DNA of 64,000 bases from an uncultured Gemmatimonadales bacterium. Its GTDB lineage: Bacteria; Gemmatimonadota; Gemmatimonadetes; Gemmatimonadales; Gemmatimonadaceae. The stretch spans positions 608,001 to 672,000 of the forward strand of contig CAWKNZ010000007.1 in assembly GCA_963851265.1 (NCBI GenBank), given 5' to 3'. Both the position numbers and the translations under genes were made by a program. Below the pieces are notes generated by a model. The model made no database searches, was not told the DNA's origin, and saw only the letters and a list, made by a program, of their open reading frames with translations. Positions 186-61,307 of the stretch are shown in pieces; positions within the stretch are counted from its first letter, which is position 1, and every line of letters begins with the position of its first letter.

Positions 186-1160
186 ATGAACGTCGCATTC
201 CTCGGCCTCGGCGACATCGGCGCGCCGATGGCTCGCCACCTCGCCACGCCGCCCTTCTCGCTCGCCGTCTGGAACCGCACGCGCGAGCGCGCCGACCGGT
301 TCGCCGCGGCGCTCCCCGCGGGCGCGTCCGCGCGCGTCGCCGCCACGCCGGCCGACGCGGCGCGCGGCGCGAGCATCGTGATCACCTGCCTTCCCACCTC
401 GCGCGAGGTCGAGGCGCTGCTCGACGGCCCCGACGGGCTGCTTGCCGGGCTCGCGCCCGGCGCGGTGCTCGCCGACTGCACGTCGGGCGACCCGGACGGC
501 TCGCGCCGGATCGCCGCCCGGCTCGCCGACCGCGGCGTCGCCTTCGTCGACGCGCCGGTGAGCGGGGGAACGATCGGCGCCGAGAAGGGCACGCTCACGA
601 TCATGGTCGGCGGTGAGGCCGCCGCGCTCGAACAGGCGCGCCCCGCGCTCGCCGCGTTCGGGCAGAAGATCGTGCACGCGGGTCCCGTGGGGGCGGGCGA
701 CGCGCTCAAGGCGGTCAACAACGCGCTGCTCGCCGTCAACGTGTGGAGCACCGGCGAGGGGCTCGCCGCGCTCGAGAAGGCGGGGGTGCGCGCGGAGGTC
801 GCCCTCGACGTGATCAACGCGTCGAGCGGGCGCTCCAACGCGTCGATGAATCTCTTCCCCGAGCGCGTCCTGACGCGCGCCTTCCCGCGCAACTTCCGCC
901 TCGCGCTACTCGCGAAGGACGCGGGGATCGCGGCCGACTTCATCCGCGCGCAGGGCGTCGACGCCCCGCTCATCTCGCGCGCCGCCGAGCTGTTTCGCGG
1001 CGCGCGCGAAACGTTAGGCGAGTCGGCCGACCACGTCGAGGCCGTGCGCGTGATCGAAGCGCAGGCCGGCGTCGAGATCGGCGGCCCGGCCACCAGTGCG
1101 GGGGGCCACGAGGAGACGCCGGAGGAGCGGGCGACCGACGTGCTCGAGCAGCCCCTGTGA
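186..1160 (+). CDS. NAD(P)-dependent oxidoreductase, 3-hydroxyisobutyrate dehydrogenase family
   Basis: MNVAFLGLGDIGAPMA Rossmann motif, DAPVSGG, catalytic K in ALKAVNN, FRLALLAKD. Start at ATG 186. Confidence 0.9.
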   Translation: MNVAFLGLGDIGAPMARHLATPPFSLAVWNRTRERADRFAAALPAGASARVAATPADAARGASIVITCLPTSREVEALLDGPDGLLAGLAPGAVLADCTSGDPDGSRRIAARLADRGVAFVDAPVSGGTIGAEKGTLTIMVGGEAAALEQARPALAAFGQKIVHAGPVGAGDALKAVNNALLAVNVWSTGEGLAALEKAGVRAEVALDVINASSGRSNASMNLFPERVLTRAFPRNFRLALLAKDAGIAADFIRAQGVDAPLISRAAELFRGARETLGESADHVEAVRVIEAQAGVEIGGPATSAGGHEETPEERATDVLEQPL

Positions 1161-2488
1161 GTGCGGGGCTGGCGCGCGACGCCTTCCCGGCGCTCGCGCG
1201 CGTGCACAACGGCCACCCGGTCGCGTACTTCGACGGGCCCGGGGGCACGCAGGTGCCCCGCGCGGTGGCCGACGCCGTCGCCGACTACCTGCTGCACCAC
1301 AACGCCACCGCGCGCTGGGCCACGCCGACCAGTCGCGAGACGGACGACGTGATCGCCGCGGCGCGCGCGGCCGCGGCCGACCTGTTGGGCGCGCGCCCCG
1401 ACGAGGTCGCGTTCGGCCACAACATGACGACGCTCGCCTTCCACCTCTCGCGCGCGCTCGGCCGCGTGCTGCCCGCGGGCCCGGGCGAGGGCGCGCCGGT
1501 GCAGCCCGGCGACGAGATCGTCGTCACCGAGCTCGACCACCACGCCAACGTCGCCCCGTGGCAGGCGCTCGCCGACGAGCGGGGCGCGGTGATCCGCACG
1601 GCGCGCCTCGACGCCGCCACGGGCACGCTCGACTGGGCGCACTTCGCCTCGCTCCTCGGCCCGCGCACGCGCCTCGTCGCGGTGAACGCCGCGTGCAATG
1701 CGTTGGGCACGCTGACGGACGTCGCGCGGGCCGCCGGGCTCGCGCGCCACGTCGACGCGCTCGTCTTCGTCGACGCCGTGCACTGGGCGCCGCACGCGTC
1801 CATCGACGTCGCGGCACTCGCGAGGGCCGGCGTCGACTTCCTCGCGTGCTCGCCGTACAAGTTCTACGGCCCGCACGCCGGCATCCTCTGGGGCCGGGCC
1901 GAGCTGCTGGCCGCGCTCGACGTGCCGCGCGTCGCGCCGTCGCCGGACACCGTGCCCGAGCGGATCGAGACGGGCACGCGCAACCACGAGGCGCTCGCCG
2001 GCACCGCGGCCGCGGTCGACTTCCTCGCGTCGTTAGGCGACGCGCCGGAGGGCGGCGGGGCGCCGGGGCCCGCGGGACCGCGCCGCCCGCGCCTCGCCCG
2101 CGCCTACACGCGCATCCGCGCCGCCGAGCAGGCGCTCGTCGAGCGGATGTGGGAGGGGCTTACCGGCCTCGACGGCGTCACGGTGTACGGCCCGCCCCCC
2201 GACCTGCCGCGCACGCCGACGGTGAGCTTCACCGTGCGCGGCGTGCACCCGCGCGACGTCACGGCCGCGGCGTCGGAGGAGGGCGTCTTCCTCTCACACG
2301 GCAACTTCTACGCGGCCACGGTCGCCGAGCGCTACGGCGTGGAAGGGCGGGGCGGGTTCGTGCGCGCGGGGGCCGCATGCTACACGACCGCGGACGAGGT
2401 GGACCGGCTCGTGGCGGCCGTGCGCGACGCGGCGCGCGGCGCCCCGCGGCCCTCGCCCGGCGCCGCCGCCATCACGGGGCCGGCATGA
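1157..2488 (+). CDS. Cysteine desulfurase-like aminotransferase class V
   Basis: YFDGPGGTQVP, LDHHAN, VDAVH, PLP lysine in CSPYKF, IETGT. GTG start overlaps the upstream TGA. Confidence 0.88.
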   Translation: MSAGLARDAFPALARVHNGHPVAYFDGPGGTQVPRAVADAVADYLLHHNATARWATPTSRETDDVIAAARAAAADLLGARPDEVAFGHNMTTLAFHLSRALGRVLPAGPGEGAPVQPGDEIVVTELDHHANVAPWQALADERGAVIRTARLDAATGTLDWAHFASLLGPRTRLVAVNAACNALGTLTDVARAAGLARHVDALVFVDAVHWAPHASIDVAALARAGVDFLACSPYKFYGPHAGILWGRAELLAALDVPRVAPSPDTVPERIETGTRNHEALAGTAAAVDFLASLGDAPEGGGAPGPAGPRRPRLARAYTRIRAAEQALVERMWEGLTGLDGVTVYGPPPDLPRTPTVSFTVRGVHPRDVTAAASEEGVFLSHGNFYAATVAERYGVEGRGGFVRAGAACYTTADEVDRLVAAVRDAARGAPRPSPGAAAITGPA

Positions 2489-2539
2489 CCTGCACGAGCG
2501 CGACGCCGTCGTAAGCGGTCGCACCAGGGCTGTCGGGCG

Positions 2540-3910
2540 TCATCCGGCTCGCCGTGCGGCGGGGGCGGTCGGCGGCGCACCCAGCGGACCCGGGCCGGTG
2601 ACGCCCGGCACCATCGCCCCCGGCGCGGTCGCCACCTGCGCCGCGGCGGCCGCGTCCACGTCGGTGCGCACGACCTCCGCGGCCGGCCGGCGCGCGACGA
2701 CCAGCTCGCGCACGAGCACCATCACGGCCGCGAGCAGCGGGACCGCGACGAGCAGGCCTAACGGCCCGAAGAGCAGGGTCATCACCCCCTGCGCGAGCAG
2801 CGTGAGCGCCGGCGGCAGGTCGATCCGCTGCATCAGCACCGGCACCAGCAGGTGGTTCTCGAGAAACTGGAGCAGCACGAACGCGACCGCGACGAGCACC
2901 GCGGTGTGCGGGCTCGTGAGGAACGCCATCGCGACCGCGGGTACGCCGCTGAGGAACGCCCCGACGGTGGGGATGAACTTCGTCAGCGCCGTGAGGACCC
3001 CGAGCGCGAGCGCCGCGCGCACGTGCAGGCCGAGCAGGATCGCCGTCGTCGCGACGCCGAGCACCGCCATCGTCAGCAGCTGGGCGACGAGCCAGCGCCG
3101 GAGCGCGATCGCGACCTCCGAGAGTACGGTCGCGCCGCGCTCGCGGCGCAGCGCCGGCAGCAGGGCGAGCACGCCGCGCGCGTACTGCGAGGGGTCGACG
3201 GCGAAGTAGAGGGCGAGGAAGATCGCGAGCAGCAGCCCCGTCGCCGCGGCGACGGTCGCGCGCACCACGCGCAGAGGGTCGCTGTGGCCGGCGCCCGCCG
3301 TGCGAATCCGCTCGACGAGCCGCGCGCGGAGCGCCGCACCGACCACGGACGGCGCCCGGCCGCCGGCGCGTCCGTCGGGCGCGCCGGCAGCCGCGGCGGC
3401 CCCCGCGGGGGCTGGCGCCGCTGCGGCGGTCGTCGCGGGCGAGCCGAGCGAGTCGACCCGCTCACCCGATCCAGCGGGCGCCGCAGACGCCGCGGACGCT
3501 GCAGGTGCGCCGAGCACGAACCGGAGCGGCCCGGTGTCGTGCGACGCGAGCCACGAGTCCAGCTCGGACAGCGCGTCGGGCACGCGCGTCTCGATCTCGG
3601 CCGACTGCCGGCGCAGCGTCGGCGCGAGCCAGGCCCCCACGCCGCCGAGGACCGCGCAGGCGCCCACCACGATGAGCGCCGCGCCGACCGCGCGCGGCAC
3701 CCCGAAGCGCGCGAGCCGCTCCGCACCCGCGGCGGCCGGCAGGCCGAACAGCACGCCGAGGAACGCGATGAAGAGCAGGTCGCGCACCGCCCACAGGCCG
3801 AGCCCGAGGGCGACCACGCCGAGCGCGGCGGCCGTCGCGGCCGCGGCGAGCTTGGCGATGCGGAGTGTGCTCGTCGGCGCGTCGGGGGGCGTGAGGTCGC
3901 CCGCGCTCAC
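2540..3910 (-). CDS. AI-2E family transporter
   Basis: Many TM segments, FIPTVG, LQFLENHLLVPVL, FGPLGLLVAVPL. GTG start overlaps the stop of the upstream gene. Confidence 0.85.
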   Translation of the reverse strand: MSAGDLTPPDAPTSTLRIAKLAAAATAAALGVVALGLGLWAVRDLLFIAFLGVLFGLPAAAGAERLARFGVPRAVGAALIVVGACAVLGGVGAWLAPTLRRQSAEIETRVPDALSELDSWLASHDTGPLRFVLGAPAASAASAAPAGSGERVDSLGSPATTAAAAPAPAGAAAAAGAPDGRAGGRAPSVVGAALRARLVERIRTAGAGHSDPLRVVRATVAAATGLLLAIFLALYFAVDPSQYARGVLALLPALRRERGATVLSEVAIALRRWLVAQLLTMAVLGVATTAILLGLHVRAALALGVLTALTKFIPTVGAFLSGVPAVAMAFLTSPHTAVLVAVAFVLLQFLENHLLVPVLMQRIDLPPALTLLAQGVMTLLFGPLGLLVAVPLLAAVMVLVRELVVARRPAAEVVRTDVDAAAAAQVATAPGAMVPGVTGPGPLGAPPTAPAARRAG

Positions 3911-5885: not shown

Positions 5886-6467
5886 ATGTCCCTGTACGCC
5901 GCGCGCACGCCGCGCGAAAGTCAGCACGAGACCTCCGAGCTCATGATGCCCCAGCACGCCAACAACCTGGGGCACGTGTTTGGGGGGGTCATCCTGTCGA
6001 TGATGGACAAGGCCGCCGCCGTCGCGGCCTTCCGGCACGCGCGCGCGGCGTGCGTGACCGTCAGCATCGACCGCGTCGACTTCCGCGAGCCGATCCACGT
6101 CGGCGACCTCGTCGTGATGAAGGCGAGCGTGAACCACGTCGGCCGCACCTCGGTCGAGGTGGGCGTGCGCGTGGAGGCCGAGGAGCTGACGAGCGGCCGC
6201 CGGCGTCACACGAACTCGTGCTATCTCACGTTCGTCGCCGTCGACCGCAACGGCCGGCCGATCGACGTGCCCCCGCTCGCGCCCGAGACGCCCGACGAAC
6301 GGCGTCGCGCCGAAGCCGCGGCCGCGCGCCGCCGCCGCCGGCTCGAAGAGCGCGACGCCGAAGCCCGCCGCCAGGGTGGCGACGCGGCGTCCGACGCGGA
6401 AGACGGGCATGCCGCCGGCGCGACGGACGCACCCGCCGGGCTCGACGCGCGGCCCACGCCCGCCTAA
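5886..6467 (+). CDS. Acyl-CoA thioesterase (hotdog fold, YciA-like)
   Basis: HANNLGHVFGG, MDKAA, VDFREPIHVGD, VGRTS, LTFVAVD. Confidence 0.9.
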   Translation: MSLYAARTPRESQHETSELMMPQHANNLGHVFGGVILSMMDKAAAVAAFRHARAACVTVSIDRVDFREPIHVGDLVVMKASVNHVGRTSVEVGVRVEAEELTSGRRRHTNSCYLTFVAVDRNGRPIDVPPLAPETPDERRRAEAAAARRRRRLEERDAEARRQGGDAASDAEDGHAAGATDAPAGLDARPTPA

Positions 6468-6482
6468 CGTTCCCGGACGCCC

Positions 6483-11485: not shown

Positions 11486-11518
11486 AATCGGCCGCGGCGG
11501 TTAGGCGTGCCGTGGTGA

Positions 11519-13113: not shown

Positions 13114-14201
13114 GCGTCCTCAGCGCCGTAAGTCAGATTGGCCCAGAATGCGCGTTCGGGGGAAACATCGGACGGCATGAGGTCAGGGAGAGGAGATCAT
13201 GGAGGCCGTGCGGGACCGGCCGTATTCGCAATGCCTAACGGAGATGCTCTCGCAGCCGTGTGCGGCGTGACCGGCACGCGCGATCGCGCCGCGCCTGCGC
13301 AGGTGCGCGATGAGCGCGGCGAGATGGCAGCACGGGGTGAACGGATCGGCGCACTCCGCGAGACCTCGAATGCGCCTGAGTGCCGGGACGCACGAGGGTG
13401 CGACCGAGCACGTGACGAGCAAAGGGACCCCGCAGGCACAATCGCCGAGTCCCGGCTGCGCGGTGCGCGGGGGCAGGCGCCGCCCATGGGCCGGGACTCC
13501 GGCCCTGGCAACCGCGACCGCGCATTCCTACGCGCTGACAGCGCGCCTGAGCATTCACCGGCCTCGCCAAGGGATGAGAGTGGCGAAACGCTGCCGTCCC
13601 TGACGTCCCTCGATCGGCACCGTGGCCACCACCGGTCGCGTCGCACGGCCAGTGCGGGACACGCCGGCCCGCAGTGTTCGAATGCACTCGCGACGGCTAT
13701 ACGCTCCGCGCTGGCGCCGCCGGGCCCCACACGCCCCACACGGACAACGGGCTGCGCCGCCGGGCGTCATACACCCGCATCGACGCCGCCGGACGGCTCG
13801 GCGTCACATCGCGCGGTGGCGAGACGCAGATCGCGGTCGTCGAGCGCCCCGGGCTCACGCTGGTATTCGTCAGGCTCGACAAAACGGGGAAGGTCGAGGT
13901 GCGTCGGTAAGAGGACGCGTTCCTCGCGCCCGATCGCGTCCGTCGCAGAGCCAGAACCGCACGACACGCGCGCGCGACGTCCAGCAGAGCATCGCGCACA
14001 GCGCCAACTCGCGGCCGGCCGCGCCCCGGTTCATCTACGCGATCGCCATGCGTACGGGCTGGCCGGAGCCGCCGACGTACTGCGTGACGCTCGCATTCGA
14101 GCGGTGGGAGCGCGACGCGCGATCATCGGATGCCGGCGGCTCGCGGTACCGGTACCCGCGGCGCGATGGCCGCCGTCGCGGATTCCCAGCCGTGCGCCGC
14201 A

Positions 14202-15032
14202 CTATGATCGTCGCGTGTCGTCAGCTGACGCGCTCGCCCGACCACCCGTGAGCACGTACCGCGCGCGGAACGCCGTGATCACGGCGCCGAGTTCGTGCGG
14301 AACCCGGGCGAACACCTCGGCCACGACCGCGTCCGGCACACCCCATCGCGCCTCGGCGAGCGCACCGGCGATACAGGCCTGCGTGTCGGCGTCGCCGCCT
14401 AACGAAACGGCGAGGCGCGCCGCGTCTTCCCAGCCCTGTGCTTCGAGGAAACAGAGAATCGCCTCGGGCACGGAGCCCTGGCACGTCACGTCGAAGTGGT
14501 AGGCGGGCCGGATGTCGTCGACCGTGCGCGCGAGATCGTACCCGAATCGGCGCGAGAGCTCGCCCCGGATCGTGGCGTTGTCGGCGCCCGTGCGCGCGAG
14601 CAGCACGCCGAGCGCGACGGATTGGGCGCCCTTGATGCCCTCGGGGTGATCGTGCGAGACGGCGGCGGAGCGTTCCGCCTCCCGCAGCACGTCGTCCACA
14701 CGATCCCACGCCCACCCGATCGGGCTCGCGCGCATCGCGGAGCCGTTGCCGAAGCTGCCGTAAGGCCGCGGATCATCGCCGCGGAACCAGCGACCGAAGT
14801 TGCCGCCGTACCCCGCATGCGGCCAGCGACGCGCGAAGGTGAGGATCGCCGCCCCGTAGTCGGGGCGTTCACCGTCCGCCGTCGCCTGCAGTATCGCGGC
14901 GGCCACCGCGCAGGTCAGCACGCTGTCGTCCGTCACCCGCGACCCGGGCGAGAACAGCGGAAAGTCGACGGCCTTCGTCGGGTGGTGCTCGAACGGGGAG
15001 CCGATCAGGTCGCCCGCGATGGCGCCGAGCAT
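14202..15032 (-). CDS. ADP-ribosylglycohydrolase family protein
   Basis: MLGAIAGD, TDDS, SFGNGSAMR, SHDHP, GGDADT. Confidence 0.92.
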   Translation of the reverse strand: MLGAIAGDLIGSPFEHHPTKAVDFPLFSPGSRVTDDSVLTCAVAAAILQATADGERPDYGAAILTFARRWPHAGYGGNFGRWFRGDDPRPYGSFGNGSAMRASPIGWAWDRVDDVLREAERSAAVSHDHPEGIKGAQSVALGVLLARTGADNATIRGELSRRFGYDLARTVDDIRPAYHFDVTCQGSVPEAILCFLEAQGWEDAARLAVSLGGDADTQACIAGALAEARWGVPDAVVAEVFARVPHELGAVITAFRARYVLTGGRASASADDTRRS

Positions 15033-16572: not shown

Positions 16573-18729
16573 ATGCCGCGTTTCAACATGTTCCGCCGCC
16601 GCGCCGCCGCGCCACACGCCGCCCTCACCGTGTGGGCCGACGGCGCGATCGGCAAGGTCCACCGGCACGACCTGCGAAAGAGCCACGTCGGCGTCCCGGG
16701 CGCGCAGCCATTCGCCAACGTCGTGTGGAACGACGCTACCGGTCGCGTAACGACCCACGGCGCACGCAACGAATACGGCGCGCTATTCAGTCTGCACATC
16801 GAGAACGCGACGACCACGGACGTCGCAGGCGTGAGCGTGACGATGACGCCACTCGTCGGGCCGAACGGGGCGGCGTTGCGCGGTACACCGGCGACGATGT
16901 CGGGGTTAGGCACCGACCCCGCGTCACAGCGCGAGCGCGGGCGTCGGCTCATGTTCTATACCGACCGCGACGTCGAACTCTTCGTGGTGCGCTACCTGCC
17001 CGTGCGCGGGCTCTCGATGTTCGGAACGGGCGACGTCGGCAAGCCGCCCGAGATCGTCGGGAGCCGATTCCGCCGGCGTCCGCCCGGCAACGACTGGTTC
17101 TCGCGCCCCGACCACGACACGTGGTACCCGGAGCCGTGCATCCCGCACGAACTCGTCCCGACGTTCACGGTCGCCGCCGGCACGCAGCAGGAGGTCCTCG
17201 TCGCGGCCTACGTGGGCGCGGACCAACCGGCCGGCGTGTACAGCGGCGCGGCCGAGGTTCGCGTCAACGGTGCCGTCGTGCGCACGATCCCCGTGTCGCA
17301 CACCGTCCACGCGCTCACGCTTCCCGACACGCCGCACCTCGGCACGATGCTCTCGGTGTCGAGCGCGCAGATCTCGGGCCGCATCGGCGGCGCGTTCTAC
17401 GCGGGCGATCCGGGGGTCATCAGCGACACGCTTTTCCGCGCTGGCACGCTGCTCCACCGGCACAAACTCACCGCGACGCTCGACACCGGCGGCTACAACG
17501 ACACGCCCACCGGCGTCAATGGCGACGCGCAGTGGGGCCCGGCGCAGGCGCTACTCCTGTCCGGGAACGGCTGGCGGACCGGTGATCCCGTCCACGGCTA
17601 CCGGGGGCCCGGCGCGGGGTTAGGCACCGGTCTGTTCGTCGACGGACACTGGCACCAGTCCGCGGGCGTGTCGCAGACCGGCCCGTACTCGGCGGCCGAC
17701 CAGGCCAAGCTCCAGGCGTACGCGACGCGCACCGTGCACGCGGTCGAGCTGCACGCCGGGCGTACGCCGACCACGTGCGTGGCCTACATGTACGATGAAC
17801 CGCCGGACTCGGCGATCGCGGGCATCCAGGCCGCGAGCGCGGCGTTCCACGCCGTCACCGGGCCGGGACGGCGGTTCAAGACGTTCTGTACCACGTGGGT
17901 GTGGCGCGTCGGCGCGTTGCCCGACCTCGACGTGTTCGCGACGAGCGGCTTCTTCAACTGGTCGATGGACGGTAAGAACCCCTACACGAACCACGTCGCG
18001 TGGATGCGCGGGAACGGACACCAGGTCTGGACCTACGACGGCCCGCGCCCCGAAGGTGGCGACTGGCACCTCGAAAGCCCCGGCGTCGATCCGTTGGTCA
18101 TGATGTTGAACTGCGGGCGGATCGGCGTCGAGCGGCACTTCTTCTACGAGGCGACGTACTATTTCGACTTCCAGAACTACGGGTCGGGCCCGTACGCGGT
18201 GGGACGACCGCACCTCGCCATCACCCAGCTCTGGGACGACGCGCAAAACTTCCAGGGCGGCAACGTCAGGTTCAACAGGTCGGTCGGGATGTCGGCCAAC
18301 GCCGCGAACCCGGGGTTCGCGAACACGTCGAATCTGGACGGAATCCTGATCTGGCCGGGGATCGACGTGCACGCGCACGACCAGGCGCGCGACAACTACC
18401 AGGCCGCCACGGTGTTCCCGGGCAAGCGCCTGTTCGCGATCAGTCGGGGCGTGCAGCTCGTCGATTACTGGCAGGCCGCGCGCGCGGTCGACGCCCCTGC
18501 GGCCGATGCCGTGCTCGACACCGTCGCGCCGGGCGGCTGGTACCAGCACTGGGAGCACTTCCACCGGTGGGGCGCGCAGGCGTCCAACAACGACCCGTTC
18601 GCGTTCCCGGGCGCGTACGGCTTCGACCCCGTGACACACCAGAGCCCGTTCGCCGCCCGCTGGAGCGAGGACCCGGACGTCGCCGAAGCCGCGCGCCGCC
18701 GTTGGGCCGCGATTGCGACGCGACGGTAG
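16573..18729 (+). CDS. DUF4091/GH123-like glycoside hydrolase-like protein
   Basis: VWADG..KV, GARNE, YMYDEP, DGILIWPG, RLFAISRGVQLVDY. Rich in aromatic residues and Asn/Gly. Confidence 0.6.
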   Translation: MPRFNMFRRRAAAPHAALTVWADGAIGKVHRHDLRKSHVGVPGAQPFANVVWNDATGRVTTHGARNEYGALFSLHIENATTTDVAGVSVTMTPLVGPNGAALRGTPATMSGLGTDPASQRERGRRLMFYTDRDVELFVVRYLPVRGLSMFGTGDVGKPPEIVGSRFRRRPPGNDWFSRPDHDTWYPEPCIPHELVPTFTVAAGTQQEVLVAAYVGADQPAGVYSGAAEVRVNGAVVRTIPVSHTVHALTLPDTPHLGTMLSVSSAQISGRIGGAFYAGDPGVISDTLFRAGTLLHRHKLTATLDTGGYNDTPTGVNGDAQWGPAQALLLSGNGWRTGDPVHGYRGPGAGLGTGLFVDGHWHQSAGVSQTGPYSAADQAKLQAYATRTVHAVELHAGRTPTTCVAYMYDEPPDSAIAGIQAASAAFHAVTGPGRRFKTFCTTWVWRVGALPDLDVFATSGFFNWSMDGKNPYTNHVAWMRGNGHQVWTYDGPRPEGGDWHLESPGVDPLVMMLNCGRIGVERHFFYEATYYFDFQNYGSGPYAVGRPHLAITQLWDDAQNFQGGNVRFNRSVGMSANAANPGFANTSNLDGILIWPGIDVHAHDQARDNYQAATVFPGKRLFAISRGVQLVDYWQAARAVDAPAADAVLDTVAPGGWYQHWEHFHRWGAQASNNDPFAFPGAYGFDPVTHQSPFAARWSEDPDVAEAARRRWAAIATRR

Positions 18730-18823: not shown

Positions 18824-20515
18824 ATGCGGCCCGCCCAGCTCGCGCGCCACTTCACCGCCTCGCTCGCGCTGTACGCGGGCGCTGCCGGCGCGCAGCGCCG
18901 CGACCACACCCAACACGAAGCCGTGGTGGCCGCGCAGGCGATTACCGGCGACGCCATGCTGCGCGACATCCGCGCGCTCGCCTCGGATGCGTTCGAAGGG
19001 CGCGCGCCCGGAACCCGCGGCGAGGATTCCGCGGTCGCCTACATCGCCGCGCGGTTCCGGGCGATCGGCCTCGAGCCCGGCGCCGCCGACGGCACCTTCT
19101 TCCAGGCCGTCCCGCTCGTCGGGACGACGTCGACCGTGCGCGCGTCGGCGAAGGTCGCCGGCCAGACGACGGTGCTCCGCCCGCTCGACGACGTCGTCGC
19201 CTGGTCCATGCGCCCAGACACGCTCGTCACCGTGCCCGCCTCGGATCTGGTCTTCGTCGGGTACGGCGTCGTCGCGCCCGAGTACAACTGGGACGACTTC
19301 AAGGGCGTCGACGTGCGCGGGAAGACGGTCGTGATGCTCGTCGGCGACCCGCCCGTGCCCGATCCGCGCGACAGCACGCGACTCGACCCGCGCGTCTTCC
19401 GCGGCGCGGCGATGACGTACTACGGGCGCTGGACCTACAAGTACGAGACCGCCGCCGCGCGCGGGGCTGCGGCCGTGCTGCTCGTTCACCAGACCGGACC
19501 GGCCGGCTACGGCTGGGGCGTCGTGCAGAGCAACGCACACGAGAAGTTCGAGGTCGAGGGGGGCCCGGCGCACGCCGCGGTCGAGGGGTGGTTGCAACTC
19601 GACGTCGCCCGCCGCCTGTTCGCTGCCGGCAGCCACGACTTTCGCGCCCTCGAGCGCCTCGCGCGCACCCGCGAGTTCCGCCCCGTCCCCCTCGGTGGCA
19701 CCGCCGAGTTCCGCGTGCAGAACGCGGTGCGGCGCGTGCGGTCGCGCAACGTCGTCGCGCGGCTCGACGGGGGCGACCCGGCGGTACGCGACCAGTACGT
19801 GCTGTACTCCGCGCACTGGGACGGCTACGGCGTCGGGCGCCCCGTCCGCGGCGACTCGATCTACAACGGCGCGCTCGACGACGCGTCGGGCGTCGCGTGG
19901 GCGCTCGCCACGGCGCGCGCCTTCCGCGCGCTCCCCCGCCCGCCGCGGCGCACGGTCGTCTTCGCGGCGTTCACCGCCGAAGAGCAGGGGTTGTTAGGCG
20001 CACGCTACTACGCGCAGCACCCGCCGTACCCGCTCGCGCGCACGCTCGCCGACGTGAACATGGACATCATGAACCCGTGGGGGCGCACGCACGCGCTCGT
20101 CAGCATCGGGTACGGCCTGAGCACGCTCGAAGACCTGCTCGCGCGCGAGGCCCGCGACGACGACCGTACGGTGCGCCCCGACCCCGAGCCCGAGAAGGGC
20201 TACTTCTACCGCGGCGACCACTTCGAGCTCGCCCGCCACGGCGTGCCGGCGCTCGCGTTCCTCTTTCCGGGGGCCGAGTACGTCGGGAAGACCACGGCGT
20301 ACGGGCCGCGCGTGCGCGCCGCCTACGTCGCCAACGACTACCACAAGCCGTCGGACGAGGTGAAGCCCGACTGGGACACCTCGGGCTTGGTCGACGACAC
20401 GCGGCTCCTCTTCCGCGTCGGGCTGGACGTGGCCGACGGAGAGGTATGGCCGAACTGGAAGCCCGGAACCGAATTTCGTGCGACGCGCGATGCGATGCTG
20501 CGCCGCCGACCATAG
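18824..20515 (+). CDS. M28 family metallopeptidase with PA domain, secreted
   Basis: EGRAPGT, VFVGYG, YYGRWTYK, SAHWD, NGALDDASG, AEEQG, YHKPSD. Confidence 0.92.
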   Translation: MRPAQLARHFTASLALYAGAAGAQRRDHTQHEAVVAAQAITGDAMLRDIRALASDAFEGRAPGTRGEDSAVAYIAARFRAIGLEPGAADGTFFQAVPLVGTTSTVRASAKVAGQTTVLRPLDDVVAWSMRPDTLVTVPASDLVFVGYGVVAPEYNWDDFKGVDVRGKTVVMLVGDPPVPDPRDSTRLDPRVFRGAAMTYYGRWTYKYETAAARGAAAVLLVHQTGPAGYGWGVVQSNAHEKFEVEGGPAHAAVEGWLQLDVARRLFAAGSHDFRALERLARTREFRPVPLGGTAEFRVQNAVRRVRSRNVVARLDGGDPAVRDQYVLYSAHWDGYGVGRPVRGDSIYNGALDDASGVAWALATARAFRALPRPPRRTVVFAAFTAEEQGLLGARYYAQHPPYPLARTLADVNMDIMNPWGRTHALVSIGYGLSTLEDLLAREARDDDRTVRPDPEPEKGYFYRGDHFELARHGVPALAFLFPGAEYVGKTTAYGPRVRAAYVANDYHKPSDEVKPDWDTSGLVDDTRLLFRVGLDVADGEVWPNWKPGTEFRATRDAMLRRRP

Positions 20516-38965: not shown

Positions 38966-38974
38966 CACGCCGCC

Positions 38975-39580: not shown

Positions 39581-40563
39581 TCGAAGCCGTCAAGCTCTGG
39601 AACGAGCCCAACAATCAGTCCCACTGGGACTTCCACATCGACCCGCGCTGGGAGCGCTTCTCCGAGATGGCCGGCGGTGCGGCGCGGCGCATCAAGGCGC
39701 TCGCCCCGGAGCTGCCGATCGTGTTGGGCGGCATGTCGCCCATCGACGCGAGCTGGCTGCGCCTCGTGGGGAGCCACGGTCTGCTCGACCTCGTCGACGT
39801 CGTCGCCGTTCACGGCTTCCCGCTCGACTGGAACCACTGGAACATCAATCAGTGGCCCGACAAGATCGCCGAGATCGAGCGCGAGACGTCGAAGCCGGTG
39901 TGGGTGACCGAGGTGGGGGTGTCGACGTTCGGCGCCGACGAGGTGCAGGAGTTCGGGCTTCGGCGCACCACCGAGCTGCTGGCCGACCGCGTGCCGCGCG
40001 CGTTCTGGTACTCGCTGCTCGACCTGCCGCCGACGTGGGAGGCCACCACGCGCCACCGCGAGAGCGAGGGGAGCGCGTACTACCGGCACTTCTACATGGG
40101 GCTCATCCGCGACGACCGAACCTTCAAGCCGTCGGCGGCGCACTTCGACCCGCGGTTAGGCATCTGCCAGTGGTTCCACTACGAGGACCACCGGCTCGAC
40201 TTCGCCGTCGGCGCGCTCAAGCAGCTCGGCGTGAAGAAGCTGCGCACCGGCCTGTCCTGGGCCGACTGGCACCGCCCCAACGCCCTCGCCTGGTTCGACC
40301 GGCAGATGGAGGCACTCGCCGACTTCGACGTCACGGTCACGCTCTGCTTCACGCCGCCGTCGCGCGGCATCAAGGAGCACCACACGAGCCCCCCGCGCGA
40401 GCCCGCCGAGTTCGGCGACTTCGCCGAGGCCATGGTGCGGCGCTACGTGCTCGGCCAGCGCGACGCCGGGGCGGTCGGCGCGCCCGTCGTGGCGGACGCG
40501 GAGGGCCCGGCGGGGGCGGAGACGCTGCTCGTGAGTCGCGACGTGGTGGAGGCGGCGCCGTGA
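39577..40563 (+). CDS. Clan GH-A glycoside hydrolase (beta-xylosidase-like), circularly permuted
   Basis: WNEP at residues 8-11, VAVHGF, WVTEVG. The LGVKKLRTGLSW strand is near the C-terminus. Confidence 0.8.
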   Translation: MIEAVKLWNEPNNQSHWDFHIDPRWERFSEMAGGAARRIKALAPELPIVLGGMSPIDASWLRLVGSHGLLDLVDVVAVHGFPLDWNHWNINQWPDKIAEIERETSKPVWVTEVGVSTFGADEVQEFGLRRTTELLADRVPRAFWYSLLDLPPTWEATTRHRESEGSAYYRHFYMGLIRDDRTFKPSAAHFDPRLGICQWFHYEDHRLDFAVGALKQLGVKKLRTGLSWADWHRPNALAWFDRQMEALADFDVTVTLCFTPPSRGIKEHHTSPPREPAEFGDFAEAMVRRYVLGQRDAGAVGAPVVADAEGPAGAETLLVSRDVVEAAP

Positions 40564-41638: not shown

Positions 41639-42238
41639 GTGCGTCTGTTCCTCGTCCGCCACGCGCTGGTCGACCCGGTCGGGGTCTCGCTCCCGGGCCG
41701 CACGCCGGGCGTCTCGCTCAACGCGGCCGGGCGCGCGCAGCTCGCGCCGTTAGGCGCGCGCGTCGCCCGCCGGCTCGCCGGCGCGCCGCTCGACGCGGTG
41801 CTCGCCAGCCCTCTCGCGCGCGCGCAGGAGACGGCGGCCGCGATCGCCGGGCGGTACGGGCTGCCGGTCACCGTCGAACCCGCGCTCCACGAACTCGACC
41901 TCGGCCGCTGGACGGGGCGCGCCCTCGCGGGCCTGGGCGACGACCCGGATTGGGTGCCGTTCAACACGTACCGGAGCGGCACGCCGGCCGGTGGCGGCGA
42001 GCTCGCGGCGGTGGCGCAGGCGCGCGCCGTAGCGGCACTGCTCGCGCGCGCGCGTGCGACGCCCGACGCCGCCGTCGCGGCGGTGAGTCACGGCGACGTC
42101 GTGCGGGCCGTGCTCGCGTACGTGCTGGGCGTCCCCATCGACCTGCAGCTGCGGATCGAGGTCGCGCCGGCCTCGGTGAGCGAGATCGAACTGCGACCCT
42201 GGGGACCGCGCGTCCTGGCTCTGAACGACGTATCCTAG
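41639..42238 (+). CDS. Histidine phosphatase family protein
   Basis: FLVRHA, SPLARAQETA, ELDLGRWTG, VSHGD. Confidence 0.9.
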   Translation: MRLFLVRHALVDPVGVSLPGRTPGVSLNAAGRAQLAPLGARVARRLAGAPLDAVLASPLARAQETAAAIAGRYGLPVTVEPALHELDLGRWTGRALAGLGDDPDWVPFNTYRSGTPAGGGELAAVAQARAVAALLARARATPDAAVAAVSHGDVVRAVLAYVLGVPIDLQLRIEVAPASVSEIELRPWGPRVLALNDVS

Positions 42239-42278: not shown

Positions 42279-43346
<1,068 letters not shown>

Positions 43347-46169: not shown

Positions 46170-47615
46170 ATGTCGTTTTCGACTTTCGAGCTCACCCCCG
46201 ACCTGCTTCGCGGCGTCGAGGCGATGGGCTTCACGGCCCCGACGCCCATCCAGGCCCAGGCCATTCCGCCGGCGGTCGCCGGCCGCGACCTCCTCGCGTG
46301 CGCGATGACCGGGAGCGGGAAGACCGCGGCGTTCGTGCTGCCGCTGCTCAACCGGCTGCTCGCCACGCGCGCCACGGCCGACGCGGGTCGCCGCGGTCCA
46401 CGCGCCCTCGTCCTCACGCCCACGCGTGAGCTGGCCGCGCAGGTGCTCGAGCACCTCTCGGCCCTCGCGCGGTTCACCCCGCTCACCTCCGCCGCGGTGT
46501 TCGGCGGCGTCGCGATGGGGCCGCAGGAGCAGGCGTTCCGCCGCAACGTCGACGTGATCGTCGCCACGCCGGGCCGGCTGCTCGACCACCTGAAGCAGCC
46601 CTACGCGAAGCTGGAGCGGGTCGAGGTGCTCGTGCTCGACGAGGCCGACCGGATGCTCGACATGGGCTTCCTCCCCGACATCCGCCGCGTGCTCTCGCAC
46701 CTGCCGCGCCAGCGGCAGACGCTGTTCTTCTCGGCGACGATGCCCGGCCCCATCGCGGAGCTCTCGCGCGAGCTGCTGCAGAACCCCGTGTTCCTCAACC
46801 AGGAGCGCACGGCCAAGCCCGCCGTCGGGGTCACGCAGGCGCTGTACCCGGTGCGCGAGGAGCTCAAGGCCGCGCTCTTTCTCGAGCTGCTCAAGCGCGG
46901 CACGCTCAAGGACGTGATCGTCTTCACGCGCACCAAGCACCGTTCCAACCGCCTCGCCGAGTACCTGACGAAGCAGGGCGTCGCGTGCGAGCGCATCCAC
47001 GGCAACCGGTCGCAGGCGCAGCGCACGCAGGCGCTCGCGGGCTTCAAGGACGGCCGGGTGCAGGTGCTGGTCGCGACCGACATCGTCGCGCGCGGCATCG
47101 ACGTCGAGGAGCTGAGCCACGTGGTCAACTTCGACGTGCCGCACCTCCCGGAGGATTACATCCACCGCGTGGGCCGCACGGCGCGCGCGGAGGCCACCGG
47201 CGACGCGTTCACGTTCGTCGCGCCGGAGGAGGAGACCGACCTGCGCGCCATCGAGAAGGCGATCGGCCGCAAGCTGCCGCGCCTCACGGTCGAGAACTTC
47301 GACTACGCGTCGAGGCCGGCCGAGCGCTTCGAGGTGCCCATCGCCGAGCGCATCGCGGAGATCCGCAAGCGCAAGGCGGAGGAGCGCGCGCGCGCCAAGG
47401 AGAAGGCGGACCGCCGAGCGCAGCACTCGGCCGCCGAGGAGGCGCGCCGCGGCACGCGTCCCGCGGCCGCGGGCCGGCCCAACGGCGGCGGGTATTCGCC
47501 TAACGCCTCGTCGGGCGCCGGCGGCACCGCGCTGGCCGAGGCGCCCGCGCGCCGCCGGAGCGGCGGGCGTGGGGGCCGCGGCCGCGGCGGGAACGGCGGC
47601 GGCCGACACGGCTGA
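46170..47615 (+). CDS. DEAD-box RNA helicase (RhlE-like)
   Basis: Q motif, TGSGKT, PTRELA, DEAD, SAT, ARGID, HRVGRTAR, RGG tail. Confidence 0.95.
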   Translation: MSFSTFELTPDLLRGVEAMGFTAPTPIQAQAIPPAVAGRDLLACAMTGSGKTAAFVLPLLNRLLATRATADAGRRGPRALVLTPTRELAAQVLEHLSALARFTPLTSAAVFGGVAMGPQEQAFRRNVDVIVATPGRLLDHLKQPYAKLERVEVLVLDEADRMLDMGFLPDIRRVLSHLPRQRQTLFFSATMPGPIAELSRELLQNPVFLNQERTAKPAVGVTQALYPVREELKAALFLELLKRGTLKDVIVFTRTKHRSNRLAEYLTKQGVACERIHGNRSQAQRTQALAGFKDGRVQVLVATDIVARGIDVEELSHVVNFDVPHLPEDYIHRVGRTARAEATGDAFTFVAPEEETDLRAIEKAIGRKLPRLTVENFDYASRPAERFEVPIAERIAEIRKRKAEERARAKEKADRRAQHSAAEEARRGTRPAAAGRPNGGGYSPNASSGAGGTALAEAPARRRSGGRGGRGRGGNGGGRHG

Positions 47616-47698: not shown

Positions 47699-47706
47699 GC
47701 CTGACG

Positions 47707-48711
47707 TTAGGCCAGGTTCCCCGTCGCGATGAGTTTCGTGACGTCCTGGACGACGAACGGCTGCACGATCGCCGCGACCTGGCCGGCCGCGAGCGGCTCG
47801 TCGAAGGCGAGCGTGACGTCCGTGCCCGTCGCGAGCCCGGCCAGCCCGGACGCGTCGATCACCACGTCGGACGTACCGTTGTTGACGGTGTGCTTCGTGT
47901 TGCCCTCGCCCGCGTAGATGAGGGCGAACGCCGACACGACCGCGGCCGGCAGCGTCACGCCGCTCGGTGCGCCCGCGGCCGCGGCGCCGTCACCCTTCAC
48001 GGTGCCGCTGTACCGGACCTGCGTATTGGCGCTGTCGAGCGTGCGGCGGAGGCGGCGGATGCGCGAGGCGTGGCGCGCCTCGAGGGCGTGGATCTGCAGC
48101 GCGGGCTTGAGCGCGGCCGTTCCGAGCAGCTTGCCGGCCTGGCCCTTGTACGCGCGGACGCCGGTGTCCTCGAAGCCCTGCGTCGCGGCGAGCAGGAACA
48201 CCGGGTCGGTCGTCGCCGGGGCGAACGGGCCGTTGCCGGCGCCGCGACCGCCGGTGAAGTCGAACGTCGCGGCCGGGTCGTACACCCCAGCCGTCCCGCC
48301 GAGCGCCTTGATCGTCGTCTGCAGGAAGGCGACGTGCGCCGTCTCGTGCTGGCTGAGGAGCTGCAGCGTCGGGACGATCGTGGCGTTCGTCGCGGGCAGC
48401 TTGCCGCGGACGGTGGCGAACGCCGTGTTGAACGCGGCGACCGTGCTGGTGCCGAGTACCGCCTTGTAGAACTCGCTCTCGAGGTTCTCGAGGAGGAGGG
48501 CGTAGTTGAGCACGTCGAGCACGGTCTGCGAAGTGGTCTGCGCGACGGCGGTCGAGGCGAGCGCGCCCAACATGATCGGCACGGAGCCGAGGGCGATGGC
48601 GGCCTTGACGAGGTCGTTCGGCTTGTCGCCATCGGCGATCGCTTCGGCGCGCTCGACGATCGCGTCCATCACCTTCGGCTCGATCGCGTCGAGAATTGAC
48701 TGGTTTTCCAT
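47707..48711 (-). CDS. Ferritin-like domain protein (Ferritin_2)
   Basis: LNYALLLENLE, HETAHV, FEDTGVRAYKG, EARHA. Confidence 0.9.
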   Translation of the reverse strand: MENQSILDAIEPKVMDAIVERAEAIADGDKPNDLVKAAIALGSVPIMLGALASTAVAQTTSQTVLDVLNYALLLENLESEFYKAVLGTSTVAAFNTAFATVRGKLPATNATIVPTLQLLSQHETAHVAFLQTTIKALGGTAGVYDPAATFDFTGGRGAGNGPFAPATTDPVFLLAATQGFEDTGVRAYKGQAGKLLGTAALKPALQIHALEARHASRIRRLRRTLDSANTQVRYSGTVKGDGAAAAGAPSGVTLPAAVVSAFALIYAGEGNTKHTVNNGTSDVVIDASGLAGLATGTDVTLAFDEPLAAGQVAAIVQPFVVQDVTKLIATGNLA

Positions 48712-49483: not shown

Positions 49484-49968
49484 GATTCCGCCCCTCACCA
49501 CGTGAATGTCCAGAACGGCGCAGACATCCGTCGACACCGCTGTCGGTACTGCCCGCCACCGTGCCCCGGGCAACCGGCATCCCCTAAGCTAAACGCGTGC
49601 CGTGAGAACTGCTTGGTGTCGTATGAGGCAGTTCATGACGAGTCATGACGGGAACTGCCGAGCGCCCGTGATGGTTAGGCAAAACTGCTACGCCGCGTTT
49701 CGGCAGCTGATGCGTTGCGCGAGCCCGGCGGACGCGCGAGCCGGCAGGCGCCGGGCGCCGCGACGGCGGCCCCAGGTACGACTCCGGCGCGGCGCGTGGA
49801 TGGCGGCCGCGCGGACACGGCGCGGATTGACGCGGTCCGCGACGACGCCCTGTTCTGTGGCGCTTTCCGCGATCCAGTGGTGGTGTGAATGGGTTCGCGG
49901 CAGTAAACCTTTGTCGCCGGACGCGCAACCCTCTTGGCCGTTCGTGCACCACGTCACACTGTAGCGCC

Positions 49969-50892: not shown

Positions 50893-50933
50893 GGCGTCAG
50901 GCGCGCGACCGCCGCGCGCCTAACGCCTCCCGG

Positions 50934-58895: not shown

Positions 58896-59696
58896 ATGAA
58901 CGCGCTCACCGACCCGTCGGTCTGGCTCGGGCTCCTGACGCTCACGGCGCTGGAGATCGTGCTCGGCATCGACAACGTGATCTTCCTGTCGATCCTCGCC
59001 GGCAAGTTACCGCCCGAGGAGCAGGCGACCGGCCGGCGTCTGGGTCTCGCGATGGCGTTCGTCACGCGCGTCCTGCTCCTGCTGAGCATCAGCTGGCTCG
59101 CGCGGCTCACGGCTCCACTCTTCACGGTGAGCGCCCTGTCGTTCCTCGAACTCGAGGCGCGCGAGATCACGGGGCGCGACCTGATCCTGATCGTCGGCGG
59201 ACTCTTCCTGATCGGGAAGTCGACCTACGAGATCCACCACAAGCTCGACGCGCGCGACGAGGCGACGGCCGCCGGGTCGGCGCGGCGTACGGCGTCGCTC
59301 GCCGCGGTGGTCGCGCAGATCGCGGTGGTCGACATCGTCTTCTCGCTCGACTCGGTGATCACCGCGGTCGGGATGGTCAACAACATCCCGGTGATGATCG
59401 CGGCCAACGTCCTCGCGCTCGTGTTCATGCTCGGCGCCTCGGGCCCGATCGCGGCGTTCGTCGATCGCCACCCGACCGTGAAGATGCTGGCGCTCAGCTT
59501 TTTGGTCCTCATCGGAACGAATCTCGTGGCCGAGGGCTTCGGGCAGCACATCCCCAAGGGGTACACATACTTCGCGATGTTCTTCTCGGTCGCGGTCGAG
59601 CTGCTGAACCTGCGGCTGCGCGGGCGGGACGCGGCGGCCGAGCGGCCGCTGCGAGCCGGCGGCACGGTGGAGCAGGCGCTCGTGGGGGAGGAGTAG
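58896..59696 (+). CDS. TerC family membrane protein
   Basis: [36 protein letters not shown]. Confidence 0.92.
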
Positions 59697-59698
59697 CG

Positions 59699-61279
59699 GT
59701 GCGCGTACTCGTCACGGGCGGCACCGGCGTGGTGGGCCACGCCGCGGTACACGCGCTGCTCGCGCGCGGGCACCGCGTGCGGCTGCTGGCGCGGCACGCG
59801 CGCGACGACGCGCGCGCGTGGCCGGCGCCGGGGGACGCGGACGCGCCGGGCGGCCCGCGCTCGGGCGCGGGCGTCGAGGCGCACGACGGCGACGTCACCG
59901 ACCCGGCGTCGCTCGGCGGCGCGGCCCGCGGGTGCGACGTGGTCCTGCACCTCGTCGGCACCGTGGCCGAACGGCCGCCGGAGGTGACGTACGAGCGGGT
60001 GAACGTGGAGGGGACGCGGCACGTGGTGGACGAGGCGGCGCGGGCGGGGGTGCCGCGCCTCGTCTACGTGTCGTCGTTAGGCGCGGACCGCGGGTCGTCG
60101 CCGTACCATCGCAGCAAGTTCGCCGGAGAGCAGGAGGCGGCGCGGTTCCCGGGCGCGTGGACGGTGGTGCGCCTCGCCAACGTGTACGGGCCGGGCGACG
60201 CGGTGGTCTCGCTGCTGCTGCGCATGGTCCGCGCGCTGCCGGTGATGCCGATGCTCGGCGGGGGTGACATTCCGTTCCAGCCGCTCTGGGCCGACGACTG
60301 CGGCGAGGTGCTCGCGCGCGCGTGCGAGCGCGACGACCTCGCGGGCGCGGCGTTCGACGTGGCCGGCGACGAGCGCACGTCCATGCGAGACCTGCTCGAC
60401 CGCTTCGCCGGACTCACCGGGCGCGAGCCGCTGCGGGCGCCGATGCCGCTCCCGCTGGCCCGGGTCGGCGTGGCGCTCGCCGACGCGGCCGGGCTGGACC
60501 TCGGCATCAACGACAGTCAGCTGACGATGCTGGCCGAGGGCAACGTGATCGACCCGCCGCGGGAGAACGCGCTGACGGCGGTGTTCGGGGTGGCCGCGAC
60601 GCCGCTCGACGAGGGGCTACGCCGGCTGGTCGACGAACTCCCGGAACAGCTGCCCGACGCGGGGCTCGGCGCGCTGCACCACAAGCGGTACTGGGCCGAC
60701 GTGGCCGCGCCGCGCGAGGCGGCGCCCGAGCTGTTCCGACGGTTCTGCGCGCGCTTTCACGCCCTGACGCCCGCGGCGATGGACCTCACGGCGGAGCCGG
60801 ACACGCCCACCGCGGTACTCACGCTTCACCAGACGGTCACGATGGCGCTGCCGCTCCGGGGGAACGTGCAGGTGAGGGTCGCGGAGCTCGGGCCGCTGTC
60901 GCTCACGCTCCAGACGGTGGAGGGGCACCCACTCGCGGGCGCGGTGCGGTTCACCTTCACCGAGCGGGGCGGCGACGCGGTCGCGCCGTTCGGCTTCGAG
61001 GTGGAGGTGTTCGAGCGTGCGGCGGACCCGTTCGACTGGGCGGCGATGGCGCTGTTAGGCAGCGTGCTGCAGCGGGCGAACTGGAAGGAGATGGTGAGGA
61101 CGGTGGTCGAGGAGAGCGGGGGGGAGGGGACGCTGGAGAGCGAGGAGGGGACGTTGGAGGGGGACGACGTTCGGCGCGTGGAAGCGTGGCTTCGCGAGCT
61201 GGCCCTGCAGAGGGCGCGCAGGGAGGAGGGGGAACGTCTGGCGGAGCCGACCGGGGACCCGCCGCCGCGCGCTGCCTAA
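59699..61279 (+). CDS. NDUFA9-like atypical SDR with extra C-terminal (DUF1990/SRPBCC-like) domain
   Basis: TGGTGVVG, VSSLGA, YHRSK, VYGPGD, FQP. C-terminal TVEGHPLAGAVRF. Confidence 0.8.
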   Translation: MRVLVTGGTGVVGHAAVHALLARGHRVRLLARHARDDARAWPAPGDADAPGGPRSGAGVEAHDGDVTDPASLGGAARGCDVVLHLVGTVAERPPEVTYERVNVEGTRHVVDEAARAGVPRLVYVSSLGADRGSSPYHRSKFAGEQEAARFPGAWTVVRLANVYGPGDAVVSLLLRMVRALPVMPMLGGGDIPFQPLWADDCGEVLARACERDDLAGAAFDVAGDERTSMRDLLDRFAGLTGREPLRAPMPLPLARVGVALADAAGLDLGINDSQLTMLAEGNVIDPPRENALTAVFGVAATPLDEGLRRLVDELPEQLPDAGLGALHHKRYWADVAAPREAAPELFRRFCARFHALTPAAMDLTAEPDTPTAVLTLHQTVTMALPLRGNVQVRVAELGPLSLTLQTVEGHPLAGAVRFTFTERGGDAVAPFGFEVEVFERAADPFDWAAMALLGSVLQRANWKEMVRTVVEESGGEGTLESEEGTLEGDDVRRVEAWLRELALQRARREEGERLAEPTGDPPPRAA

Positions 61280-61307
61280 CGGCGCCCCTCGGGTGCAGGG
61301 GGTCGGG

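Follow-up and report, generated by a model that had tools for sequence, protein, structure and literature searches.

To our knowledge, short words iterated across whole genomes are known only from the Pasteurellaceae, the Neisseriaceae and the cyanobacteria, and the function of such words is still debated. The uptake signal sequences (USS) of the Pasteurellaceae and the DNA uptake sequences (DUS) of the Neisseriaceae are exact, non-palindromic short words, present in thousands of copies and in both orientations, restricted to their lineages, spaced more evenly than random, made by mutation rather than inserted, and accompanied by an enrichment of the peptides that they encode; the USS lie mostly within genes and show a strong frame bias (PMC2817400). 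The cyanobacterial highly iterated palindrome HIP1 (GCGATCGC) is hyper-abundant, occurs in all frames, is conserved beyond expectation and shows quasi-regular spacing (PMC5861425; PMC13756078), and a role in transformation or uptake is now proposed for it (PMC13756078; 10.1101/2024.09.10.611283). The subject of the present analysis is the heptamer GTTAGGC (GCCTAAC on the opposite strand), to which a preliminary description drew attention in a stretch of 64 kb from an uncultured bacterium of the Gemmatimonadaceae (contig C7, positions 608001-672000, hereafter the window; the genome, G000, comprises 4.60 Mb in 12 contigs at 73% GC). A literature search that covered papers without their supplements found none on GTTAGGC or on any uptake sequence in the Gemmatimonadota.

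It is clear that the word is real and that it acts at the level of DNA. An exact search of the window returned exactly 32 copies, 21 as GTTAGGC and 11 as GCCTAAC on the forward strand, so that every position listed in the preliminary description was recovered, while 100 dinucleotide-preserving shuffles of the window gave a mean of 2.47 (sd 1.41, maximum 7) and none reached 32. The whole genome (4.6 Mb) holds 1762 copies, of which 885 are forward and 877 reverse, and the genome-wide count against a Markov null that had been proposed identifies GTTAGGC as the most over-represented 7-mer, at 18.3 times the 96 copies expected from an order-2 model; 1762 of the 2470 TTAG tetramers of the genome (71%) fall within it. 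The excess was also measured against a shuffle of synonymous codons within each gene, which keeps the protein and its codon usage, including the TTA codons that GTTAGGC itself supplies. This null, on which the preliminary description had made its claim depend, yields 68.7 +/- 8.9 coding copies genome-wide (20 shuffles) where 1292 are observed, a 19-fold excess, and 1.1 +/- 1.1 in the coding part of the window (200 shuffles, maximum 6) where 24 are observed. Genes were called with a purpose-built codon-model gene finder (3608 genes, about 87% coverage), with which Pfam agrees for 46 of the 54 window proteins. A maximum-order Markov model gives an observed-to-expected ratio of 1.02, and this is no refutation, because the two overlapping 6-mers already hold the signal. 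Among the 21 words that differ from GTTAGGC by one mismatch, only GTTGGGC, the synonymous TTG-GGC, is in excess (1393 against 631 expected, 2.2-fold); most of the others lie at or under expectation, GCTAGGC and CTTAGGC at about 0.15 of it. The deficit of GCTAGGC recurs in a motif-poor relative, G006, and the excess of GTTGGGC is confined to the motif-rich genome of this pair.

The placement of the copies relative to genes shows on what the force acts. Genome-wide, 997 copies read x-TTA-GGC in the sense direction, 199 read G-CCT-AAC in antisense, 71 read CTA-AC and 24 GTT-AGG; 109 form GCC-TAA stops and 75 GT-TAG-GC stops (184 stops in all), 286 are intergenic, and the last is a CCT-AAC copy overlapping a gene end. 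The word thus occurs in each of the four frames free of stops, in two registers that make stop codons and in the spacers. The window is a small sample of the same pattern (21 x-TTA-GGC, 2 CCT-AAC, 1 CTA-AC, 4 GCC-TAA stops and 4 intergenic copies), and there the codon-model gene calls reproduced the frames assigned earlier. It had also been noted that the word supplies nearly all TTA codons seen in the window, and proposed that a lack of G_GGC context around them genome-wide would speak against a DNA signal; 997 of the 1281 TTA codons (78%) sit in G-TTA-GGC. The 57% of all copies that occupy this one frame, the share of TTA codons taken up by the word and the presence of a gene for tRNA-Leu(UAA) could suit a translational signal, with the TTA-GGC codon pair used for pausing or regulation, and this can scarcely be entertained: the 270 in-frame antisense copies, the stop copies and the intergenic copies all contradict it, and antisense occupancy equals that in the sense direction. 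GTTAGGC writes 8% of the Leu-Gly dipeptides (1006 of 12605) and 11% of those that read Pro-Asn (205 of 1864), and from this similar occupancy it follows that the bias towards the sense frame is explained by opportunity. With respect to the stop registers, GTTAGGC accounts for 109 of the 416 TAA stops and for 75 of the 721 that read TAG, and so makes the two rarer stop codons commoner than they would otherwise be.

The bases that flank the word obey a rule independent of frame, which likewise counts against a translational role. The base at -1 is C in 74-92% of copies, with T next and purines rare, and the base at +7 follows the order G>A>C>>T, in every class of copy, spacers included; the same rule holds in the congeneric genomes G001 and G004 and in a genus of 59.5% GC represented by G012. 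Beyond -1 and +7 only codon periodicity is seen, and no conserved longer unit or hairpin of the kind found in repetitive extragenic palindromes or miniature inverted-repeat transposable elements. The unit is therefore about Y-GTTAGGC-V, mostly CGTTAGGCG, and not a longer repeat or a mobile element. The use of all frames, stops and spacers, the equal occupancy in sense and antisense and the flank rule together uphold the view, first offered from the window alone, that the force acts on DNA and not on protein.

Comparison with G001 and G004, which are 82-88% identical to G000, provides a view of how copies come and go, with orthologue statistics drawn from one chromosomal neighbourhood. In a 20-kb syntenic region 3 of the 12 sites of G000 are common to all three genomes and each genome has private sites; the unshared sites are replaced by GTTGGGC, by GCTCGGC or, less often, by non-synonymous words, and align without indels. 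By this alignment of orthologues, which the preliminary description had suggested as a check, copies are gained and lost by point substitution, not by insertion. Over 97-125 kb of alignment, 24 of 54 sites of G000 are retained exactly in G001 and 18 of 37 in G004 (44-49%), compared with 28% for in-register 7-mers and 24-32% for non-motif G-Leu-Gly words, so that GTTAGGC is kept about 1.7 times better than the controls. Turnover is fast, yet retention exceeds the neutral level in spite of GC pressure. The word has also reshaped the proteome: the tripeptide [APTS]-Leu-Gly occurs at 3.49 per 1000 residues in G000 with a forward/reverse ratio of 1.31, as against 2.64 per 1000 and a ratio of 1.02 in 400 kb of the motif-poor G006.

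The trait is present or absent by lineage, and its distribution is patchy, as the check across related genomes called for at the outset makes plain. Of 31 relatives, the word is abundant in all five members of the same genus and in one other genus, and most of the rest are poor in it. Across 151 genomes of the family, tallied by hand and including the unpublished G011, G047 and G093, CGTTAGGC stands at least 3-fold above its reversed word, an imperfect control, in 39 genomes, which belong to 18 of the 68 genera; another six genera fall at 2-3-fold and about 40 below 0.5-fold. The contrast extends within genera: in g53, G061 and G151 carry about 4000 copies each and G114 carries 66, and in g23 the rich G094 and G139 contrast with G031, which is not rich. 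In G006, GTTAGGC occurs at the Markov expectation (7 copies against 7.4) and no other word stands out, from which it follows, for the one motif-poor genome sampled, that poor genomes lack the phenomenon rather than using another dialect. A tree of 30 genomes chosen by trait, built from a single gene for a conserved core protein of 1140 aa, requires 8 changes between the rich and poor states, 6 of them forced by well-supported branches; with shuffled labels the mean is 10.2 changes, and as few as 8 suffice in 51 of the 500 shuffles. The sister lineages that differ in state on this tree are G045 and genus g1; G059 and G064 as opposed to g9; G031 and G126; G006 as opposed to G067 and G120; G036 and G076; and G114 as opposed to G061 and G151. 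The word is also found in a cultured species, Gemmatirosa kalamazoonensis KBS708, with 42 copies in 50 kb, and the 1.1-Mb plasmid of this strain has 892 copies against 50 for the control. On this plasmid (plasmid 1, NZ_CP007129.1) the positions of the word at about 1.5-48 kb recur at 54.5-101 kb, always 53,060 bp further on (1490/54550 and 3668/56728 are examples), which indicates a direct duplication of about 50 kb in the plasmid as deposited.

Within G000 the word is sharp, evenly spaced and, as judged by proxies, non-polar. Gaps of 50-300 bp between copies number 59 where about 159 are expected, both under uniform placement and under placement on 15231 GYTNGGC-type sites, a short-range repulsion that is accompanied by an enrichment of gaps of 0.5-3 kb. 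Density climbs with local GC content, from 0.24/kb at 68% to 0.66/kb at 78%. The mean gap is 2.6 kb and the longest motif-free stretch is 45 kb (C1:182876-227962), at a GC content of 73.8% that is normal for the genome; it carries housekeeping genes, among them gidA, parA, parB and mnmE, and the idea that it is foreign DNA was rejected on account of this content. The regular spacing, the desert around gidA-parAB-mnmE and retention above neutral would be in keeping with a binding site for a nucleoid or chromosome-organising protein under ordinary within-cell selection, along the lines of the structural role argued for HIP1 (PMC5861425). This reading is held to be unlikely, with some chance of being right. 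The desert is not conserved: in G001 the region is motif-poor in part, with 6 sites in 42 kb, and in G004 and G012 it is not motif-poor. Half of the sites differ between congeners, which would be odd for positional structural sites, and sister lineages lose the trait without a replacement word.

The direction of replication was sought in G000 from base composition, where GC skew is flat, skew at third codon positions (GC3), taken separately by gene strand, has no replication component, and the most skewed 7-mers merely follow gene orientation; replichores could not be defined. The polarity of the word, which the preliminary description had proposed to examine, was therefore assessed by replichore-free proxies. 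The word occupies 7.5% of Leu-Gly and 9.5% of Pro-Asn dipeptides in genes that run with the local majority, as against 6.1% and 9.0% in those that run counter to it, consecutive intergenic copies share an orientation in 133 of 274 cases, and consecutive genic copies fit the expectation from gene orientation (68.4% against 66.9%, and 31.7% against 33.1%); none of these results indicates polarity. The contig that bears dnaA, C1, has 36 forward and 46 reverse copies. In the spacers between divergent genes GTTAGGC lies on the minus strand 44 times and on the plus strand 20 times, other spacer types being balanced, which may be an artefact of start-codon calls. The non-polar result favours systems such as HIP1 and the uptake sequences over Chi and the FtsK-orienting polar sequences (KOPS).

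Chi sites, as read by RecBCD or AddAB, nevertheless share with GTTAGGC that they are short, asymmetric, lineage-specific and over-represented. Two adjacent open reading frames with PDDEXK_1 domains (C3:244523-248949) resemble an AddA/AddB pair, at the domain level only, and RecC was not found in G000. An AddAB-type helicase-nuclease, or some other nuclease, might then recognise the word and protect or recombine the DNA that carries it, and protection of incoming linear DNA would also bias transmission. Known Chi sites are skewed, and neither an 18-fold enrichment nor use of the rarest codon is known of them. For these reasons, and because short-range repulsion is not predicted and the motif-poor G006 has no alternative word, a Chi-like or self-protective function is held to be unlikely, with some chance of being right.

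If the word is read, a reader should track the trait, and candidates were profiled, where so counted, in 32 genomes, 16 rich and 16 poor. None of those considered (ComP, Vsr, DNA methylases, the type IV secretion system, integron integrase, PilT and ComEC) does so; the list includes methylases and a recombinase, for which the preliminary description had suggested a check of co-occurrence. ComP_DUS (PF16732) finds weak matches in 13 of the 31 relatives, unrelated to the trait. The type IV secretion protein VirB4 is present in 2 of 32 genomes, and HIP1, by comparison, is a palindrome with cognate orphan methylases and a correlation with type IV secretion; GTTAGGC is asymmetric, and C5 (PF00145) and N4/N6 (PF01555) methylase domains were not found in G000. 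Matches to N6_Mtase in G000 consist of frame-broken fragments at two contig ends and one intact 1140-aa protein resembling Eco57I/MmeI, which was discarded as a reader since it is present in all 32 genomes, rich and poor.

These results bear directly on a further explanation, in which a neutral bias of mutation or repair (very-short-patch repair or methylase-linked deamination) keeps regenerating the word. The routes to GTTAGGC are C-to-T and G-to-A transitions, and its precursor GTTGGGC is in excess only in the motif-rich genome, as such a bias would have it. A bias at one position cannot, however, yield an 18-fold excess over seven fixed positions and two flanks, and neither short-range repulsion nor retention above neutral would be expected from it. 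Vsr occurs in fewer of the rich genomes (3 of 16) than of the poor ones (6 of 16) and was not found in G000 or in any genome of g1 or g9; with no C5 or N4/N6 methylase domain found in G000 and a sole intact methylase that is present in all 32 genomes, the explanation is quite improbable.

The Eco57I/MmeI-like methylase is itself of some interest. Together with an adjoining 758-aa SNF2-type helicase it lies about 23 kb upstream of the window (C7:579717-585511), and it is 44-82% identical across 32 genomes of the family, which is unusual for an enzyme of restriction-modification type and suggests a core function. The fragments (C7:767831-772495 and C9:923-1858, at 67-68% GC) lie beside a 753-aa GmrSD/Schlafen-like protein, and these contig ends are probably a decayed or poorly assembled defence island.

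A separate question is raised by integrons. As the preliminary description pointed out, the word matches the integron core GTTRRRY, and it is in fact identical to a canonical attC core and inverse core (PMC12901181). The likeness goes beyond the letters: cassette arrays of two genomes of the same order, G021 and G023, use exactly GCCTAAC...GTTAGGC, and their attC arms follow the flank rule, with a pyrimidine at -1 in 35 of 36 readings and T at +7 in 1 of 36 (18 attC sites, each counted on both strands). An integron integrase scores above cut-off in 18 of 31 genomes of the order. The word might therefore be read, as an attC or attI core, by the integron integrase or a related tyrosine recombinase. 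The letters match, yet integrons do not explain the word. An integrase passes the cut-off in 9 of the 16 rich genomes as against 12 of the 16 poor ones. The two genomes of g52, both with more than 3000 copies, have no match at E<=1e-40, and G000, G001 and G012 each have a split or partial gene. Only 9 exact attC-like pairs (inverse core and core 50-150 bp apart) occur among the 1762 copies of G000. More than 99% are solitary, standing in frame in conserved genes and arising by substitution rather than insertion; the notion that each is half of an attC site was rejected, as RYYYAAC partners near solitary copies show no excess in G000. An integron-linked origin of the pattern was already weakened by these findings and is very improbable, and the integrase is unlikely as the reader. 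The statement that the window contains no integrase was sound, for a Pfam search of its proteins found none, the split gene being on another contig (C6:3005-6044 and C6:1592-1702, matching model positions 2-265 and 260-313 about 2 kb apart). One attC-like pair adjoins this split integrase, and four lie within 15 kb on C10:188936-203786, a small cassette array or a cluster of attC sites lacking an integrase (CALIN).

One plausible explanation is that GTTAGGC is a self-tag, similar to an uptake sequence or to HIP1, which is kept by biased exchange of DNA. This reading is preferred tentatively, at somewhat less than an even chance, because the word shares so many properties with USS, DUS and HIP1: an exact word in both orientations, a frame bias driven by opportunity, an origin by substitution, even spacing, retention, a footprint in encoded peptides and restriction by lineage. 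The properties given for USS and DUS in PMC2817400 are those found here. A solitary, non-palindromic Y-GTTAGGC-V would be recognised in double- or single-stranded DNA by a putative sequence-specific protein; copies would arise by point mutation, typically from CTS-GGC through TTG-GGC to TTA-GGC, and would then be kept or spread by a transmission bias in favour of DNA that bears the exact word. From these parallels we infer a bias at DNA uptake or recombination and a dedicated reader protein, the likeliest form being a preference for kin DNA during uptake or incorporation in natural transformation, as for USS, DUS and, by a recent proposal, HIP1. One copy per few hundred bases would be sufficient, which would explain the avoidance of short gaps.

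A number of observations weigh against the self-tag reading. We know of no report of competence in this phylum, and a literature search on the Gemmatimonadota returned none among the matches listed. The changes of state among 30 genomes, at least 6-8 in number, demand an accessory reader gene, and none was found; ComP_DUS matched none of 8 candidates in G000 at E<=0.01. G000 does possess import machinery (ComEC, two secretins and PilT), but ComEC and PilT are each present in 32 of 32 genomes, rich and poor alike, and hence explain nothing. The polarity tests rest on proxies. The differences from USS and DUS are also considerable: their core is 9-12 bp long and the unit here 7-9 bp, their excess is 200-1000-fold (PMC2817400) and that of GTTAGGC 18-fold, and mismatched forms of USS and DUS are enriched (PMC1939737), which here applies to GTTGGGC alone. 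Terminator-like inverted pairs are almost lacking, the few intergenic inverted pairs in G000 numbering 9. The trait belongs to another phylum, is patchy between genera of one family, and has no alternative dialect in the one motif-poor genome.

A bolder version of the self-tag reading would be a new DNA-exchange tag in the Gemmatimonadaceae, with an accessory reader gained or lost at least 6 times, a specificity for Y-GTTAGGC-V copied from or co-evolved with the attC core, and cells that import kin DNA and integron cassettes alike; we consider it improbable. If cells did read the tag in this way, with attC-derived specificity, natural transformation would be linked to the cassette pool. The word would in any case be a fourth instance of a genome-wide iterated word, in an abundant and little-studied soil phylum, and were it an uptake or self tag it would reveal sequence-biased DNA exchange in soil bacteria and offer a handle for transforming them. 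The system is tractable in that Gemmatirosa kalamazoonensis is a cultured carrier, the trait is on or off between sister genera and even within a genus, at least 6 independent contrasts are available for phylogenetic profiling, and gains and losses are easily seen because the word runs against strong GC and codon bias.

Table 1. Copies of GTTAGGC in the window, with strand, placement, gene product according to Pfam, and state of the site in the congeners G001 and G004.
Position	Strand	Placement	Product (Pfam)	Congeners
1013..1019	+	x-TTA-GGC in + gene 114-1160	NAD-binding dehydrogenase	
2032..2038	+	x-TTA-GGC in + gene 1157-2488	class V aminotransferase	
2756..2762	-	x-TTA-GGC in - gene 2540-3910	AI-2E transporter	
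6462..6468	-	GCC-TAA stop of + gene 5886-6467	thioesterase	
11500..11506	+	intergenic		
13233..13239	-	intergenic by the present gene calls		
14397..14403	-	x-TTA-GGC in - gene 14202-15032	ADP-ribosylglycohydrolase	
16905..16911	+	x-TTA-GGC in + gene 16573-18729		
17619..17625	+	x-TTA-GGC in + gene 16573-18729		
19993..19999	+	x-TTA-GGC in + gene 18824-20515	M28 peptidase	
23427..23433	+	antisense, xGC-CTA-ACx in - gene 22469-23551		
23754..23760	-	x-TTA-GGC in - gene 23664-24467	nucleotidyl transferase	
24520..24526	-	x-TTA-GGC in - gene 24472-25614	glycosyltransferase	
28285..28291	+	x-TTA-GGC in + gene 28049-29035		kept in G004; GTTGGGC in G001
28963..28969	+	x-TTA-GGC in + gene 28049-29035		kept in G001 and G004
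30051..30057	+	x-TTA-GGC in + gene 29074-30633		GCTCGCC (Leu-Ala) in G001
30417..30423	+	x-TTA-GGC in + gene 29074-30633		kept in G001
31925..31931	-	antisense G-CCT-AAC in + gene 31809-32906	GT4 glycosyltransferase (strand confirmed)	
32534..32540	+	x-TTA-GGC in + gene 31809-32906		GTTGGGC in G001; GCTCGGC in G004
33541..33547	+	x-TTA-GGC in + gene 32903-34018		kept in G001 and G004
36309..36315	+	x-TTA-GGC in + gene 36181-37026		kept in G001 and G004
38960..38966	-	GCC-TAA stop of + gene 37067-38965		
40155..40161	+	x-TTA-GGC in + gene 39577-40563		GCTCGGC in G001; CCTCGGC in G004
41749..41755	+	x-TTA-GGC in + gene 41639-42238		non-synonymous alternatives in G001 and G004
43211..43217	+	x-TTA-GGC in + gene 42279-43346		kept in G004; GTTGGGC in G001
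47498..47504	-	antisense G-CCT-AAC in + gene 46170-47615	DEAD-box helicase (strand confirmed)	
47706..47712	+	GCC-TAA stop of - gene 47707-48711		
49674..49680	+	intergenic		
50918..50924	-	intergenic, between convergent genes 50089-50892 (+) and 50934-52337 (-)		
60076..60082	+	x-TTA-GGC in + gene 59699-61279		
61054..61060	+	x-TTA-GGC in + gene 59699-61279		
61274..61280	-	GCC-TAA stop of + gene 59699-61279		

The genes of the window are of interest apart from the word that they carry (Table 1). Positions 23664-45213 hold a long cluster of sugar-nucleotide and glycosyltransferase genes, with four Glyco_trans_1_2 paralogues, several epimerases and dehydratases, a methyltransferase, a HAD hydrolase and an EamA transporter, which probably directs the synthesis of a surface polysaccharide. 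The best relatives of one window protein, at 62-73% identity, are in metagenome-assembled genomes of Gemmatimonadales, Gemmatimonadaceae and Longimicrobium. A further set of AT-containing words of the type CTACTAC, TCTACAA and GTAGTAGA is 8-11-fold over the order-2 Markov expectation in both G000 and the motif-poor G006, and is a separate, family-wide signal, possibly a promoter or some other element.

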